A stretch of DNA of 15,981 bases from Candidatus Zixiibacteriota bacterium (GTDB lineage Bacteria; Zixibacteria; MSB-5A5; CAIYYT01): assembly GCA_040235515.1 (NCBI GenBank), contig JBECKX010000067.1:1-15981 (forward strand), in the 5' to 3' direction. Made by a program: the position numbers. This document shows, piece after piece, positions 6,001-15,000 of this stretch (position 1 is the stretch's first letter; each line of letters starts with the position of its first letter).

Positions 6001-9000
6001 CGACTGTCATTTCAACTCATATCGGGAGGGAGTCAGATGATTTACTTGATCGACCCTCAGGATGCCGCCATCGAAAAATGCCCGGCCAAGTGCTTCCTTA
6101 AGTGCAGTGGCGTCTGTGGCATTAAGCCGTTGTACGGTGTTCCAATTGATTTCGAATAGGCCCGTTTGAGGCCTGGTGTCGCCGGTGAGTGCTGGTAAGC
6201 TCTCATCGGCGTCAAAACCGCCCGAGCCCGATCCGGGTGGTCGCGACTGAGATGTTTGGATGTGGAGGCAAGCATCCCGCTTGTCTGCACTGTTACTTAA
6301 ACACTTCGGGAGGGAGTTAAATGATCTACTTGATCGACCCTCAGGATGCTGGGATCGAGAAATGCCCGACCCTCTGCTTCTTGAAATGCAGTGGCGTCTG
6401 CGGTATTAAACCGCTCTATGGCGTCCCGACAGAAACCGAATAGACCTACCTGAAAGGTCTGCAAGCGCAGGGGGAGCAAACAATGCTCCCTCTGCGTAAG
6501 TCGGCAATCGTCGCTGTCGATCGATCGCGAAGGTCAGGAGGACTTATGACGGACTTCAATGCGAACCATAACGCGAACCATAACGCGAACAGCAACCCGA
6601 ACAATGTCGCGAACCTCAAAGCGAAAAAACTATCGCGCTACAATCACTTCCAACCGTGGCAGGGTGGCTACCACATCGCTTATAACGCACTCTCCGGCGC
6701 GCTGGCGGTGATGACCGAAGAAAACTACCGGGCCTACAATCAAATCGCCGACAAAATCAATTCGACTAACGGACACTCTACTTTTGACGAGGGGGAGCAG
6801 GAACTCCTGAAGCAGCTTGAGTTTGGTCGTTTCGCCTATTCCGCCGAGAATGACGAACTCGACAGCATCAAGTTCACCAACAATCTCCACCGCTATGATC
6901 AAACCAGTCTCGGTCTGACCATCGCACCAACAATGGCCTGTAACATGGCCTGTCACTATTGTTACGAGAACAATACCACTCGCAAAATGTCGCCGGAGGT
7001 GATCGAGGCGCTCCTCGACTTCATCGACAGGCGCGCCGATCAACTCCGCACCGTCGATATCTGCTGGTATGGCGGCGAACCGCTCCTCGCACTCGATATC
7101 ATCGAGGATATCACCGAGAGTCTTATCGAACTGAGTGAAGAGAAGCACTTCGAGTATGTCGCGACGATGATTTCCAACGGTTATCTCCTCACACCCGCAG
7201 TCGTTGATCGGCTTGTTGAACTCAGGGTGAAAATGGTGCAGGTTACGCTCGACGGCCCGGCGGCATCACACAATGCCAAACGCCCGCTCAAAAACGGCAA
7301 GGAGAGCTTCGCGACGATCATCGAGAACCTCAAGTACGCCTCCACCAAACTTGCAATTGGTGTGCGTGTTAATGTCGATAAGTCATTTTCGCTTGAGATG
7401 ATTCGCCAACTGCTCGGCGACCTGAAAGCCGCTGGTCTCGAACGCCGCATCGGCATCTACTTCGGACAACTCGAACCGGCGACCCAGGCCTGCGGCAACA
7501 TCGCGGATGCCTGCTACGGCAACGCTGATTTTTCCAACATCGAGTCGGAATACTTCGAGCTGTTGTTGAGCGAAGGCTTTCGTATCGAGAAACTCCCGCA
7601 ACCGGTGGGCGTCTTCTGTATGGCGCAACGTATCAACGCCTTCGTCATTGACCCGGAGGGCTTTCTCTACCGTTGCTACAACTACGTTGGGGATCAAAGT
7701 CACGCCGCCGGCAACATCAAGGATGGCGTGGTAGACTACCAGAACAAGAATTTCAAAAAGCTGTTTCAGTTCAACGCGCTCGAGTCACAGCGCTGCTTGA
7801 ACTGTGATATTCTCCCGATCTGCCTCGGAGGCTGTCCGGCGCAAAGGGCTGATCGGGCTCAAACCGAAGATGATGTTTGTTTGAGCTGGAAGCACAATCT
7901 TGGCCCCATGCTCAACATAATTGCCGCTTCGCGTCAGCAGAAGTTGCAGGCGGCGAGTAAGGAGTAGGGAACATGAAGAAAGAAACCAACCAATTCAGGT
8001 TCTTCCCACAATCAGTGGTCTGGGAGATCACCTTCGCCTGTAACATGCGTTGCATCCATTGCGGAACCGCTGCGGGCAAGAAACGCCCCGACGAACTCAC
8101 GACCATCGAAGCGCTCAATCTCGTCGACGAACTCGCCGACCTCGGCTGTGAAGTCGTCGCCATCTCGGGCGGCGAGCCGCTCATGCGCAGCGACTGGCAC
8201 CAAATCGCCAAACGCTTCGTCGATCGTGGCGTCAAAACCTGCTTGATCACCAATGGTCTCGCTGTCACCGAGGAGATCGTCGATCAGTTCATCCAGCTGG
8301 GGCTGACCCGCATCGGCGTCAGTTTCGATGGCACGAAGAATACTCATAACTACATCCGCCAGCGTGATGACAGCTACGACCAGGTTATCAACGCGATGAA
8401 ACTGATGGCCGCCAAAGGCATGCCCTTTGCCGCCGAGAGCCAGATTTCAAACATCAACGTCTACGAACTCGATCAGATGCGCGAGATCCTGATCGAAGCC
8501 GGCTGCCCTCTCTGGCGTATCCAGATGACCACCAGCACCGGCCGCATGGCAGCCAACAAAGAATTGGTGCTCTCGAAGGAAAACTACAATCTGCTCGTCG
8601 ACAAGATGCTGGCATACCAGAAACGCAATCATGAAATCATGATCGATGTCGGCGAAAACATCGGCTTCTACGGCTGCAAGGGTACCGAATTGTGGCAAAA
8701 TACACCCTACTTCGGCTGCTTTGCCGGTACCCGTGTAGCCGGTATCGAATCGAACGGCACCATCAAAGGTTGTCTCTCGATGCCGGAAGATTTCGTGGAG
8801 GGCAACATCCGCGACTCCTCCTTCACCGAGATCTGGAATGACCCGACCAAGTTTGCCTACAACCGCGCCTTCACTCGTGACAGCGCGGAGGGCTTCTGTC
8901 ACGACTGTAAATATCTGCCGCTGTGCCGTGGTGGATGTGCCACCACCTCATACTCAGCGTCTGACTGTCGCGCCAATAACCCCTACTGCACCTATCGCAT

Positions 9001-12000: not shown

Positions 12001-15000
12001 ACGGCTACGACACGATCGTTGGCGAACGTGGTGTGACGCTCTCCGGTGGGGAGAAACAGCGGATCTGTCTGGCGCGGGCCGTGATCAAAGACCCGCGTGT
12101 GCTGCTGCTCGATGAGGCCACCTCCGCGCTCGACACCATCTCCGAGCGGCTGATCCAGCAGTCACTCGATAAAATCCTGCAGGGCAAGACCGCAGTAATC
12201 GTGGCGCACCGACTCTCAACCGTCAAAAAAGCTGACCGCATCATCACAATGGAGCGGGGTCGCATTATCGATCAGGGGAGTCACACCGACTTGCTCGCCC
12301 GCTCACAACTCTACCGCGACCTGGCAGAACACCAGTTGGCCTGACGCTTCGTCATTCCGGGCAGGAGGAATTCCTCCGAACACGCCGATACACACCCCGT
12401 CTTCGTTTCTCGCAAGGCTCGAATCGAATCCACCCCTCTCAAGAGGGGAGTTCGAAAGGATAGATGCAGTTGTAGGGTCACAGGCGAACACTTTGCTACT
12501 GGTCTTGTCATTCTTGGTTCGACCCAGATCCATGCCTTTTCCGTGTGGGGTGTACGTCCTCGTGCACCGCATGATCTCACCATCGCCCTCTATGGGAAGG
12601 TGGGCCAAACGGCACGCTACACCCATGCTCAGCCCTACATCCGCTCGCCCCTCTCGAGAGGGGCAGGCTGAGATCGCGAGAGCGATCACAAGCCGGAGTG
12701 TGTCTCTTCACACCCAGCATTTTCTCCTCAACTTCCCACCCCTAATCTCGTATCTTCCCCTACTATGAAAATTCTTATAATCGGCGGAACACAGTTTGTC
12801 GGACGGCACCTCGTTGATGAGCTCCTCAAAGACAAACATGAAATCACCCTCTTCCACCGCGGAGAGACAAACAAGAACCTATTCCCACAGGTCGAAGAGA
12901 TCCTTGGTGATCGCGATGGCAACATCGACAAGCTCGCGGGCCGAACCTGGGATTGGTGCATCGATACCTGCGGCTATCACCCGCGCGTGGTCAGGCAATC
13001 AACTCAGCTTCTTCGGAACCAGGTAGCCAACTACCTCTTCATCTCAACCTGCTCGGCCTACTCTTACGACAATGAGGGGCCGGTGACTGAGGATGGTCTC
13101 CTCCACACGCCCATCGACGAATCGATAGAGCAGGTAGATCGCCACACTTACGGTCCCCTCAAGGTGATGTGTGAGGATGTTGTCGCTGAGGATTTCCCCG
13201 ATAATCACCTGATCATCAGACCCGGCATCATCATCGGCCCGCACGATCCTACTGATCGCCTCGTCTATTGGTTGCGACGCTTCTCGCGGGCGGACAAAGT
13301 TCTTTGTCCCGACACGAAGGATCAACCGGTGCAGTTAATCGATATGCGTGATATGGCCGTTTGGATTGCCTCACTTGTGAGCAGGGGAACGACAGGCATC
13401 TTCAACGCCGCCGGACCGGAAACTCCGGTTCCCTTCGGTGACCTGATTACGAGGTTGAGAGCAATTTTCGACAGCATGGCCGAACCGGTCTGGGCTGATC
13501 TCGAGTTCCTTAAGAACGCTGATCTCCCACCCGGCTCATTACCGTTCTGGCTCGCCGGCGCAAAGGAGAAGTACAGCCTGTTCCAAGCTGACTGTGCAAA
13601 GGCTCGCTCAACCGGCCTCAGATATCGCCCTCTGGAGGAATCGTTTAAGGACACCTACGAATGGGATAAGGGTAGGGTGGGTGTTGATCTTGTGTCAGGA
13701 CTCAGCCTGCAACGCGAACAGGAGCTGCTCGCACAGCTCCCGTAGGTCATGCCTTCTTGGGGCATGACGCACGGATGCAATCTGCGTTTGCCTCTCGTCC
13801 GACTTGTGCGCGGTGTACGTCCTCGTGCACCGCTCTCATGGTGCCGCCATTCCGGGCTTGCCCCGGAATCCATCTTTGTCAGGCCGAGTCTATTCGGCCC
13901 AACCACCGCAACCGAAAGGGAGTAGGGAAGTAGGTCATGCCCTCTTGGGGCATGACGCACGGATGCAATCTGCGCTTGCCTCTCGTCCGACTTGTGTGCG
14001 GTGTACGTCCTCGTGCACCGCTCTCATGGTGCCGCCATTCCGGGCTTGCCCCGAAATCCATCTTTGTAGGACCGACTTGATTCGGCCACATCACGCGACC
14101 GTAAGGGAGTAGGGAAGTAGGTCATGCCCTCTTGGGGCATGACGCACGGATGCAATCTGCGCTTGCCTCTCGTCCGACTTGTGCGCGGTGTACGTCCTCG
14201 TGCACCGCTCTCATGGTGCCGCCATTCCGGGCTTGACCCGGAATCCACCAATGTCAGGCCGAGTCTATTCGGCCCAACCACCGCAACCGAAAGGGAGTAG
14301 GGAAGTAGGTCATGCCCTCTTGGGGCATGACGCACGGATGCAATCTGCGTTTGCCTCTCGTCCGACTTGTGCGCGGTGTACGTCCTCGTGCACCGCTCTC
14401 ATGGTGCCGCCATTCCGGGCTTGACCTGGAATCCATCATTGTCAGGCCGAATTCAACCGGCCATATCTTGCGACCATCGGGGTGTGTTCAGGGACTCTCC
14501 AGAAAGCGATTGACTAACAAAGAGGCAACACACTACTTCAGCCTATGACAGATGACATCACCTTCCGCAAAGCAACCAGGCACCTGTCCCGCGACAAAAA
14601 AATGGCGGCGGTCATCAAACGAGTCGGTGTGTTCAATCCCCCCAAAAGCACCACCAGCATGTTTGATATGCTCATGCGCATCATCGTCGGACAACAACTT
14701 TCCGGTAAGGCCGCGCAGACGATCTTCAATCGCGTGCGTGCTCTTAACGGCAACAAGTCGATAACGCCGAAAAGTATGGCTGCGATTACCGATGACCAAC
14801 TTCGCGCTGCCGGCATCTCCCGCCCGAAATTGAAATCAATCCGCAGTGTTACTGAAGCCGTCACTTCCGGTCAGATCAGCGCCCGCAAATTGAATCGGAT
14901 GAGTGAAGAGGACGCCATGGAGGCCCTCACTGCTGTCAAAGGTCTCGGCCCCTGGAGTGTGCAGATGTATCTGATGTACCACGTGCAGCGGCTCGATGTC

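Follow-up and report, generated by a model that had tools for sequence, protein, structure and literature searches.

What product is made by an operon that places short cysteine-rich peptides next to three radical SAM enzymes and a transporter? We examined this question in a window of 15,981 nucleotides, the whole stretch analysed, from contig JBECKX010000067.1 of a Candidatus Zixiibacteriota bacterium. All features described here lie on the + strand. Genes for precursor peptides A (pepA, 6037..6159) and B (pepB, 6321..6443), both 40 residues by translation and 85% identical, are followed by rSAM1 (6546..7967), rSAM2 (7973..9094, 373 residues), a B12-binding radical SAM enzyme (9164..10600, 478 residues) and an ABC half-transporter (10536..12344). 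Translation and domain scans recovered every gene of the layout given by the first-pass annotation. The evidence supports a five-gene RiPP-type cluster with a new, unnamed precursor family. The Zixibacteria cluster is real, conserved and without earlier characterisation; a literature search, which did not cover the main spliceotide survey, found no publication on it.

Distribution of the cluster

In the phylum set, rSAM1 orthologues occur in 86 of 285 genomes (30%) and rSAM2 in 84, with both in 83; the mismatches comprise four genomes, two of them at contig ends. The cluster reaches 8 of 20 families and is patchy inside genera, so its earlier description as Zixibacteria-wide and typical of the whole phylum was too strong. 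Peptide homologues do recur, as previously claimed, but the counts of 66 genomes and 36 of 130 genera fall to 58 and 30 at E ≤ 0.001; rSAM1 accompanies the peptide in 56 of these 58 genomes. From 20 regions picked from peptide-positive genomes, all 18 that bear the enzymes keep the proposed order peptide(s)-rSAM1-rSAM2-(B12)-ABC. All-against-all clustering of ORFs from the fetched loci revealed no further conserved gene, including no protease.

Precursor peptides with constant ends and a variable core

Peptides A and B both begin with MIYLIDP, and C15, C19, C23 and C27 precede a shared GIKPLYGVP. In peptide A, the leader spans residues 1 to ~14, the cysteine core is C15-x3-C19-x3-C23-x3-C27, and L32-Y33-G34 within IKPLYGVPI forms a putative splice site. 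The sequence GGGAGGGAG lies directly 5′ of the peptide A ATG. A Pfam scan of both peptides returned zero matches, and the sole NCBIfam row was the huazacin family (13.4 bits at E 0.059, where the cut-off is 35 bits), reproducing the earlier statement that the peptides lack a Pfam family and match huazacin only below threshold.

An alignment of 57 family peptides shows M1, P7, P31 and G34 to be invariant and Y3, L4, D6, C19, C27 and Y33 to be conserved at 90% or more. The ends are thus constant (N-terminal M-x-[YF]-L-I-D-P and C-terminal P-[LMC]-Y-G-[VI]), and between them lies a hypervariable core whose only recurrent residue is cysteine. Loci carry one to five tandem peptide genes, encoding precursors of 31-44 residues with 10-13 residues after the last cysteine. 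Cx3Cx3Cx3C, once put forward as the family hallmark, is a subset feature found in just 18 of 84 distinct peptides, and Cx3C is the commonest spacing of neighbouring cysteine pairs (131 of 184). Exactly one Tyr-Gly is present in 83 of the 84, preceded by Leu (66), Cys (10) or Met (7), a regularity that, like the C-terminal Pro, was partly imposed by our searches, since the DNA pattern demanded P-x-Y-G and the regular expressions [YH]G. A phmmer search free of motif constraint found loci whose peptides, taken with similar regular expressions, also bear the C-terminal motif, with one exception that reads L-H-G.

All synonymous codons of the N-terminal motif are used, including all six for Leu and all four for Pro, which indicates selection on the peptide rather than the DNA. 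A degenerate DNA pattern of both motifs matched 50 stretches across all GTDB species genomes, 48 of them short ORFs belonging to the family, against a hand-estimated chance expectation of ~10 matches. Chance recurrence of the peptide motif is excluded.

The RNA around the peptide genes is strongly structured. The spacer between them (6160..6305) folds at -64.4 kcal/mol (z -3.9, with none of 200 shuffles equally stable), and the region 6441-6545 folds at -48.7 kcal/mol (z -5.4). A G+C-rich 14-bp hairpin 3′ of the last peptide gene (6465..6497) has no U tract and overlaps an upstream rSAM1 ATG at 6483. Of 17 other loci, 12 have an equivalent spacer that reaches z ≤ -2 (mononucleotide shuffles). 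This hairpin is probably an mRNA stabiliser or an attenuator that fixes the ratio of precursor to enzyme.

rSAM2 as a candidate splicease

The radical SAM motif of rSAM2, CNMRCIHC, begins at residue 23, leaving no N-terminal recognition domain, and is followed by a full SPASM domain. Its best NCBIfam models are TIGR03913 ("GDL motif peptide-associated", 249 bits) and, equally close, TIGR04103 (245 bits, cut-off 725), both scored far under their cut-offs; one or the other is the top family in all 83 relatives scanned, which belong to the 150 representatives closest to rSAM2 in a set of 1.84 billion clusters. MftC (153 bits), the sactisynthase StsB (108), PqqE (95) and SkfB (88) score lower, and SkfB is the best solved relative. 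Among the relatives is a natural 938-residue fusion of an rSAM2-like half with a Clo7bot-like half. We tentatively place the splicease PlpX in TIGR04103, partly on the strength of the "nif11-class" name of this family.

This link between TIGR04103 and PlpX also draws on a review that names IPR026482 (PMC11002830). Spliceases in the literature target MYG and LYG sites (PMC10533398, PMC11626197, PMC9811515), and the PlpXY splice tags in one Table 1 include GPIRPLYGLPI (PMC10533398). The window's GIKPLYGVPI is identical to the PlpA2 tag PIRPLYGLPI at 7 of 10 positions and conservative at two more. PlpX is described as depending on a local tag instead of the leader (PMC11414181, PMC9811515), which fits an enzyme without a recognition domain. 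A constant motif read by rSAM2 and a variable core read by rSAM1 would also lead one to expect higher conservation of rSAM2, and mean column identity is 69% for rSAM2 against 51% for rSAM1. From motif identity and family-model comparison, we infer that rSAM2 is probably a PlpX-like tyramine splicease that would act on L-Y-G to give an alpha-keto-beta-leucine.

The first-pass annotation had instead assigned thioether formation to both SPASM enzymes. Under that scheme each would link cysteine to carbon, as do TrnC/TrnD and ThzC/ThzD, and P-L-Y-G would be an acceptor or a turn with no splicing. Thuricin CD and thuricin Z/huazacin clusters are described with the same layout of paired precursors, a pair of divergent radical SAM enzymes that both form thioethers, and ABC transporters, so a second thioether enzyme has precedent (PMC8172795); the Cx3C register yields the faint huazacin match, and rSAM2 does match StsB and SkfB. 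The TIGR03913 and TIGR04103 scores of ~245 bits are, however, more than twice that of any thioether enzyme, rSAM2 has no recognition domain, and an invariant Tyr-Gly after Leu, Met or Cys with PlpA2-like flanks is unexpected for a mere acceptor. We therefore consider an all-thioether product rather unlikely, and rSAM2 is probably not a thioether maker.

rSAM1 and predicted leader recognition

The longest rSAM1 ORF spans 6483-7967, while the gene call in the record begins at 6546 and gives 473 residues. A 12-nt tandem repeat (6561..6625) encodes an (N-A-N-H)-like low-complexity N-terminal extension that is missing from homologues, which begin aligning at residue 49 of the long ORF. An AF2 model has a pLDDT of 85.5 overall and below 50 at residues 1-20. 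Pfam, NCBIfam, this model and fold matching together define an N-terminal RRE-like domain, a Radical_SAM core with CNMACHYC, and a full SPASM domain (TIGR04085, Cx2Cx5Cx3C with flanking cysteines).

The best families of rSAM1 are all maturases of Cys-rich peptides, as proposed before: TIGR04334 (Clo7bot, 320 bits), TIGR04463 (293), CefB (224), PapB (148) and the SCIFF maturase (98). Every named equivalog cut-off (600, 525, 600, 340 and 425, respectively) lies above these scores; the earlier figure of 247 bits for the first two was too low, and the accompanying point that rSAM1 falls far under 600 and 525 stands. CteB is both the closest solved relative by sequence (E 6e-18) and the best fold match (5why/5wgg, TM 0.64/0.71). 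Family and fold thus point to a thioether-forming maturase of the cysteine core.

The enzyme could instead perform another Cys-directed or carbon-carbon radical reaction, such as anSME-like cysteine oxidation, cyclophane formation or a different cross-link, with rSAM2 still splicing. We found no published chemistry for Clo7bot, TIGR04463 or CefB, and anSME, TigE, ChlB and SuiB are good fold matches too. Since the closest characterised relatives (CteB, PapB and the SCIFF maturase) make thioethers and cysteine alone recurs in the variable core, such a reaction seems improbable.

The N-terminal peptide motif had been proposed to mediate recognition, and structure prediction agrees. A complex of rSAM1 with the peptide, loaded with SAM and three 4Fe-4S clusters and predicted with custom alignments, scored 0.70 against 0.01 for the best control; the same mark is attained by 116 of 157 solved complexes, compared with 2 of 215 mismatched pairs. 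Runs shared at least 51% of contacts, with a partner pLDDT of at least 44. The prediction lays peptide residues 1-7 and 10-12 on rSAM1 residues 45-56, 87-95, 111 and 115, and its confident contacts are those with 45-56, which include a modelled strand at 52-56. According to this prediction, the motif would pack as a strand against the RRE-like recognition domain; the pass may mirror the likeness of this complex to the solved leader-enzyme complexes CteB-CteA, SuiB-SuiA and ChlB-ChlA.

Putative tailoring and export

The B12-binding enzyme contains CPFDCAFC and the domains PF02310 and PF04055, scores below all equivalogs (best TIGR04013, 87 bits) and has TokK as its nearest solved structure (E 9e-12). 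Reported earlier from 5 of 6 loci, it is encoded in 14 of 18 fetched loci that carry the enzymes, yet it is optional across the phylum set, occurring in 48 of 285 genomes, all within the 86 that carry rSAM1. We noticed no correlation between its presence and any peptide feature. It may be an optional accessory tailoring enzyme, and methylation is a guess from its family.

The ABC protein (ABC_membrane and ABC_tran by Pfam and NCBIfam) combines a six-helix membrane domain with an ATPase, and a domain scan detected no C39 peptidase domain. Homologues align from residue 22-25, which suggests translation from the ATG at 10572. Conservation of the exporter, claimed earlier, holds in 16 of the 18 enzyme-bearing loci, and the half-transporter presumably exports the product.

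A hypervariable core, one to five tandem peptide genes and a conserved exporter favour an exported product over a cofactor. Cofactor precursors hardly vary and are encoded by a single gene. A redox cofactor precursor akin to PQQ or mycofactocin, with rSAM2 modifying the Tyr and nothing exported, has in its favour the MftC and PqqE matches of rSAM2 and the conserved Tyr-Gly close to the C terminus, but is highly improbable given the variable, tandem paralogues, the conserved exporter, the patchiness inside genera and the lack of a conserved dehydrogenase or other cofactor-using gene nearby in the ORF clustering of loci.

Proposed pathway

The reading we hold to be moderately probable is a hybrid RiPP operon that combines thioether cross-links by rSAM1, tyramine splicing by rSAM2 and optional B12-dependent tailoring. 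Two 40-residue precursors would be translated from a transcript with a strong hairpin after each peptide gene. M-I-Y-L-I-D-P is predicted to bind as a beta-strand against the rSAM1 N-terminal RRE-like domain, and this CteB-like enzyme, judging from family and fold, would tie two to four core cysteines to carbons of other residues as sactionine or ranthionine thioethers. Guided by the tag I-K-P-L-Y-G-V-P, rSAM2 would excise the tyramine unit of Tyr33, as motif identity and family suggest, leaving Leu32 and Gly34 joined by an alpha-keto-beta-amino amide (ketoamide), as formed by PlpX and RasX at LYG sites. The B12 enzyme, where encoded, may introduce one more change, of which C-methylation is the simplest, and the half-transporter would export the product. 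Because no protease is encoded, the short leader would either stay in place or be cleaved off by an enzyme with housekeeping functions.

The product is probably a peptide braced by thioethers that displays a Leu, Met or Cys ketoamide, and its scaffold varies by paralogue and species. Ketoamides are known warheads against serine and cysteine proteases. The claim of a new RiPP class is unproven, and the evidence favours a hybrid of two known chemistries.

Comparison with known systems

The spliceotide systems (PlpX/PlpY with PlpA2 and PlpA3 in Pleurocapsa; the binary RhaX, RasX and RcsX systems in Rheinheimera) contain a radical SAM/SPASM enzyme whose closest NCBIfam family is among the top two of rSAM2. 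They also share the X-Tyr-Gly site with X as Leu or Met, the I-[KR]-P-L-Y-G-[LV]-P-I flanks of the PlpA2 tag and, as we propose for rSAM2, the use of a local tag in place of a leader. Unlike members of the spliceotide equivalog, rSAM2 is a non-member (245 bits against 725), and the Zixibacteria cluster lacks both a Y protein and a Nif11/NHLP leader. Its precursor also differs in being only 31-44 residues long and Cys-rich, and in having a CteB-like maturase, frequently together with a B12 enzyme, as its partner.

Like the ranthipeptide and SCIFF systems (CteB/CteA, PapB/freyrasin), rSAM1 consists of an N-terminal RRE, a radical SAM core and SPASM, and it is paired with a short Cys-rich precursor whose leader is predicted to lie on the RRE strand. 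In contrast to those systems, rSAM1 falls below the PapB (148 against 340) and SCIFF (98 against 425) cut-offs, and the precursor is unrelated in sequence and lacks a conserved Thr or Asp acceptor after each Cys.

The hairpin sactipeptide clusters of thuricin CD (TrnA/B, TrnC/D) and of thuricin Z/huazacin (ThzA, ThzC/D) resemble the locus in having two precursor genes, a pair of divergent radical SAM enzymes and ABC transport (PMC8172795). The peptides nonetheless score below the huazacin model (13.4 bits against 35), the 10-13 residues past the last Cys are short for a nested hairpin, and the second enzyme here is by family of the PlpX type. The Cys donors of thuricin CD are spaced Cx3C, as in the Zixibacteria peptides.

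The best families of rSAM1, Clo7bot (TIGR04334), TIGR04463 and the CefB "Cys-every-fifth" family (NF038107), align over its full length. Scores below their cut-offs (320 against 600, 293 against 525 and 224 against 600) set rSAM1 apart as a separate clade, and neither peptide A nor peptide B is matched by the peptide families that go with these maturases.

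Results

A conserved cluster built around short Cys-rich peptides

The cluster opens with two precursor genes on the forward strand, peptide A (6037-6159) and peptide B (6321-6443), each encoding 40 aa and each preceded by the ribosome-binding stretch GGGAGGGAG. The two products are 85% identical and share one layout, in which MIYLIDP is followed by a short acidic linker, a C-x3-C-x3-C-x3-C core, GIKPLYGVP and a short tail. On the same strand follow two enzymes with Radical_SAM and SPASM domains, rSAM1 (ORF 6483-7967) and rSAM2 (7973-9094), then a B12-binding radical SAM protein (the B12 enzyme, 9164-10600) and an ABC half-transporter (10536-12344). 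The database record gives rSAM1 as a 473-aa product (P0016), which puts the start at 6546, 3′ of AGGAGG. The ATG farther upstream, at 6483, sits within a 14-bp hairpin (6465-6497), and the alignment with homologues begins at residue 49 of the long ORF. An Asn/Ala/His-rich, low-complexity N-terminal extension of rSAM1, which is encoded by a 12-nt tandem repeat (6561-6625), is absent from the homologues and disordered in the structural model. The spacers 3′ of both peptide genes fold much better than shuffled sequences (z of -3.9 and -5.4), and 12 of 17 other loci have an equivalent spacer that folds at z <= -2; such folds would fit a stabilised or attenuated precursor transcript.

We sampled 20 regions from 19 peptide-positive genomes, chosen across families. 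The order peptide(s)-rSAM1-rSAM2-(B12)-ABC is kept in all 18 enzyme-bearing regions, with the B12 gene present in 14 and the ABC gene in 16, and the remaining two regions hold orphan peptide genes only. The conserved cluster claimed in the first-pass annotation is real. Clustering of all ORFs from these loci revealed no further conserved gene beside it, be it a protease, a regulator or an immunity gene. One locus (L037, 9750-11190, G034:C2), whose cluster is otherwise intact, has its B12 gene broken into two overlapping ORFs, probably through a frameshift.

Farther along the window, repeats at 12507-12571, 13742-14475 and 15246-15568 include tandem arrays of a 188-nt unit (3.8 copies, 93% matches) and a 77-nt unit (3.4 copies), which flank an HhH-GPD glycosylase gene (14545-15159). 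An approximately 30-nt module of these arrays recurs at 20 or more sites on contigs elsewhere in the genome, and a single time close behind the ABC gene, and looks like a REP-like dispersed palindromic element.

Distribution across the phylum

A six-frame search with peptide A gave matches in 58 of the 285 Zixibacteria genomes, representing 30 of 130 genera and 8 of 20 families. Orthologues of rSAM1 (E <= 1e-90) occur in 86 of these genomes, from 40 genera and the same 8 families, so that "Zixibacteria-wide", as the cluster had been described, is right in that it is common within the phylum but overstates its spread. Orthologues of rSAM2 (E <= 1e-80) are found in 84 genomes and of the B12 enzyme (E <= 1e-60) in 48. 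The two SPASM enzymes occur together in 83 genomes, the exceptions being G007 and G062, where the gene lies at a contig end, G078 and G191. Fifty-six of the 58 peptide-positive genomes and all 48 with the B12 enzyme are also rSAM1-positive, and the B12 enzyme is absent from all 199 rSAM1-negative genomes; these overlaps are descriptive counts over related, non-independent genomes rather than statistical tests.

A motif-based DNA pattern run over all species genomes returned 50 stretches, 48 of them true members, and five of the 48 are labelled as lying outside Zixibacteria. Two of the five prove to be G062 and G135 of the phylum set, matching them in contig and coordinates. A third, L060, carries an Alphaproteobacteria label and shares 75% identity with the window genome in its ClpC; the last two sit on contigs just 3.1 kb and 2.5 kb long. 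This leaves no solid case beyond the phylum, and the family looks confined to Zixibacteria, in only about a third of the phylum. A large protein collection contains 9 peptide clusters and at least 120 rSAM1 clusters (at least 52% identity). Across all sources neither peptide nor rSAM1 bears a specific name, the labels being "hypothetical", "radical SAM" or "SPASM domain-containing" only. Orphan peptide genes lie away from enzyme genes at L035 (G017:C2), L044 (G139:C20), L020 (G225:C461) and L060, the last flanked by a ferritin-like gene and clpC in a genome without an rSAM1 orthologue at E <= 1e-20. One 2.7-kb contig holds four peptide genes of the family.

The peptides combine a variable Cys core with constant ends

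We recovered 84 distinct peptides of 31-44 aa, which contain one to five Cys. The commonest Cys spacing is Cx3C (131 of 184 neighbouring pairs). The full Cx3Cx3Cx3C arrangement, earlier put forward as the family pattern, is present in peptides A and B but was overstated for the family, where it occurs in 18 of the 84. The N-terminus is constant (M-[IV]-[YF]-L-[IVL]-[DEN]-P; M-[DEN]-[YF]-[LI]-I-[DN]-P in distant members), as is a C-terminal stretch, P-[LMC]-Y-G-[VI]-[PD]. When 57 picked peptides are aligned, M1, P7, P31 and G34 are invariant, and conservation is at least 90% at Y3, L4, D6, C19, C27 and Y33. The peptide regular expressions and the DNA pattern demanded parts of both terminal motifs. 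The six-frame phmmer search with peptide A imposed no motif, the peptides being extracted from its loci by motif-requiring regular expressions; these peptides carry both motifs, with the exception of one L-H-G. All synonyms are used at every codon of the N-terminal motif, so the constraint acts on the peptide.

Exactly one Tyr-Gly is found in 83 of the 84 peptides, preceded by Leu (66), Cys (10) or Met (7), a motif partly imposed by the search patterns. The tail after Tyr-Gly is 3 or 6 residues long whatever the Cys number, which speaks neither for nor against a nested-hairpin sactipeptide model. Ten of the 84 peptides (at L014, L025, L028 and L029, among others) read K-P-C-Y-G, with Cys in place of Leu or Met before Tyr-Gly; this Cys may give a Cys-derived ketoamide if spliced, or serve as a further cross-link donor. 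The peptides do not belong to the huazacin family model NF037972, on which peptide A scores 13.4 bits against a cut-off of 35 and peptide B has no match.

rSAM1 resembles thioether maturases and is predicted to bind the leader

The rSAM1 sequence contains the radical SAM CxxxCxxC motif as CNMACHYC and a full SPASM Cys set, made up of CLNCDILPICLGGC and flanking Cys, and it scores 58.8 bits on TIGR04085 (SPASM; cut-off 27). A short precursor with a Cys-rich core adjoins it. All its top-scoring families mature Cys-rich peptides, namely Clo7bot (320 bits), TIGR04463 (293 bits) and CefB (224 bits), followed by the geopeptide maturase (211 bits), PapB (148 bits) and the SCIFF maturase (98 bits). 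The enzyme falls under the cut-off of every one of them; against the thioether equivalogs PapB, SCIFF, CcpM and StsB, the values are 148 versus 340, 98 versus 425 and 102 versus 500, and against the CXXX-repeat system maturase TIGR04115 they are 75.6 bits versus 350.

The sole solved relative of rSAM1 by sequence is CteB (5wgg, E 6e-18), which is described as carrying an N-terminal RRE (PMC8172795). An AF2 model (pLDDT 85.5) places strands (27-56) and helices (58-116) before the radical SAM core, and Foldseek ranks CteB first (TM 0.64/0.71), ahead of TigE, anSME, ChlB and SuiB. We then predicted a complex of rSAM1, three 4Fe-4S clusters, SAM and the peptide using custom alignments, which scored 0.70 versus 0.01 for the best control. 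Of 157 solved complexes, 116 attain that mark, as do 2 of 215 mismatched pairs. Structures of similar leader-enzyme complexes exist, and the pass may mirror that likeness. Contact agreement between runs is at least 51% and partner pLDDT at least 44. The confident interface joins peptide residues 1-7 and 10-12 to rSAM1 residues 45-56, 87-95, 111, 115, 350-355 and 459-467, with peptide residues 3-5 predicted to pair with residues 51-55, as a strand on residues 50-56.

This model supports leader binding by an N-terminal RRE-like domain of rSAM1, and with it the short N-terminal recognition motif proposed in the first-pass annotation. Its reading of rSAM1 likewise agrees with the best-scoring families and the top fold. 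The Cys core is not placed with confidence in the modelled complex, so thioether formation by rSAM1 is suggested by family and fold.

rSAM2 is a probable tyramine splicease

In rSAM2 the radical SAM motif begins as early as residue 23, leaving no room for a recognition domain. Its best families are TIGR03913 (249 bits) and, second, TIGR04103 (245 bits, E 8e-73), with NirJ2, AhbD, MftC, StsB, PqqE and SkfB all well below; the PlpX family is taken to be InterPro IPR026482, an entry named in a review (PMC11002830), and this presumably corresponds to TIGR04103, "nif11-class peptide radical SAM maturase 3". When 1.84 billion cluster representatives were searched exhaustively, 718 proteins came back at E <= 1e-30. 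For all 83 proteins scanned from the best 150, the top family is TIGR04103 or TIGR03913 and no cut-off is reached, which places rSAM2 in a wide neighbourhood of largely unnamed proteins.

Spliceases excise tyramine at X-Tyr-Gly, where the native X is described as Met or Leu (PMC9811515); RasA is spliced at LYG and RcsA at MYG (PMC11626197). The PlpXY splice tags listed in Table 1 of PMC10533398 include GPIRPLYGLPI. The GIKPLYGVPI of peptide A is identical to PIRPLYGLPI at 7 of 10 positions, and two of the others are K-for-R and V-for-L exchanges. PlpX is reported to be leader-independent and to read a tag of about 10-11 residues (PMC11414181, PMC9811515), which suits an rSAM2 without an RRE. 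Mean column identity is 69% for rSAM2 and 51% for rSAM1.

The second SPASM enzyme had earlier been taken for another thioether enzyme, a reading that its top families and the PlpA2-like Tyr-Gly tag make probably wrong. Counting against a splicease are the equally good match to TIGR03913 and the TIGR04103 cut-off of 725 bits, which rSAM2 misses by far; its putative kinship with PlpX was also judged from family-profile scores. Weighing these points, we consider it likely on sequence grounds that rSAM2 performs splicing.

Several relatives of rSAM2 are long proteins. P0201 (938 aa) is a natural fusion of a TIGR04103/rSAM2-like half (6-342) and a Clo7bot-like half (500-929), and its matches in the species genomes reach only 25-33% identity, none being a close relative. 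P0138 also has two radical SAM/SPASM halves, and in P0225, P0245 and P0272, long proteins as well (728-834 aa for these four), the rSAM2-like match covers only part.

The B12 enzyme and export

The B12 enzyme consists of PF02310 (42.8 bits) followed by PF04055 (68.8 bits) and belongs to no named family, the best being TIGR04013 (87 bits versus 251), with the RiPP C-methyltransferase TIGR03975 at 68 versus 282. Its nearest solved structure is TokK (E 9e-12), and a protein atlas search returned generic B12/radical SAM clusters only. The enzyme is never found without the cluster, yet it is absent from 38 of 86 rSAM1-positive genomes, and one genus has it in 3 of 13 genomes despite nearly the same peptides. 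By eye, its presence correlates with no peptide feature, either within genus g3 or across loci. The B12 enzyme is a dispensable tailoring enzyme; that it methylates is the simplest guess, with roughly an even chance of being right. Extra full-length copies (second or third; 48-56% identity) lie on another contig or far from the cluster in G170, G143, G038, G180, G059, G142, G168, G139 and G017.

The ABC protein resembles MsbA-type and bacteriocin-type exporters. It lacks the C39 peptidase domain, as its match to TIGR01193 begins at profile position 169 of 708 and protein residue 51, and no Pfam peptidase is present. The cluster encodes neither an outer-membrane component nor a protease, and the 14-residue leader may be kept or removed. 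An S9 oligopeptidase B-like gene (607-2763, reverse strand) and HtpX (2976-3824, reverse strand) lie upstream and were considered as a dedicated protease. Both are kept only in the same-genus locus L032, as is a dockerin-domain gene (4376-5458, forward strand), and we therefore place all three outside the cluster.

Discussion

A scheme in which rSAM1 forms thioethers and rSAM2 splices is, as a whole, somewhat better than an even bet. The fuller reading, for which the chances appear evenly balanced, is of a RiPP family that would unite two radical-SAM chemistries so far known apart, the macrocyclisation of a hypervariable Cys core through thioethers and the formation of a ketoamide by tyramine splicing, with an optional B12-dependent step. 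The seven-residue N-terminal strand would then be the whole leader signal, a compact splicease would act on 31-44-residue substrates, and the products would amount to a library of scaffolded protease inhibitors, diversified within the uncultured Zixibacteria and restricted to them.

If so, one ribosomal peptide would carry both a ketoamide warhead and a thioether-braced scaffold, a combination on which we found no paper, and would be a naturally occurring template for constrained inhibitors of proteases. Handy enzyme tools may follow, because the peptides are tiny, the leader signal is seven residues long and the tag is close to one already used in protein engineering. A gene set present in about 30% of species genomes of an uncultured phylum would gain a testable chemical function. 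More generally, where a Cys-rich RiPP cluster holds another rSAM/SPASM gene beside the first, thioether chemistry should not be presumed for it, the clue being an invariant Tyr-Gly in the precursor.

Our literature search found nothing in print on this peptide family, including under Zixibacteria RiPPs or ranthipeptides and the motif text; a survey reported to hold 939 predicted splicease systems lay outside that search, and the splicease half may already be in its list. The same search gave nothing on Clo7bot and only unrelated papers on OhkG, FlmE and CefB, and in one supplement of PMC10288494 neither Zixibacteria nor any of the peptide motifs appears.

Among known systems, the cluster is like the ranthipeptides and sactipeptides on the rSAM1 side and like the spliceotides on the rSAM2 side, with membership of a named family on neither. 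It differs from type I spliceotide systems in having no Y protein, and gene and domain searches found no Nif11/NHLP leader; published binary spliceotide systems are likewise described as lacking a Y protein (PMC11414181). Thuricin CD and thuricin Z are likewise reported to combine a pair of precursors with two radical SAM enzymes and ABC transport (PMC8172795), a resemblance that made the pure thioether reading of the first-pass annotation a reasonable one.
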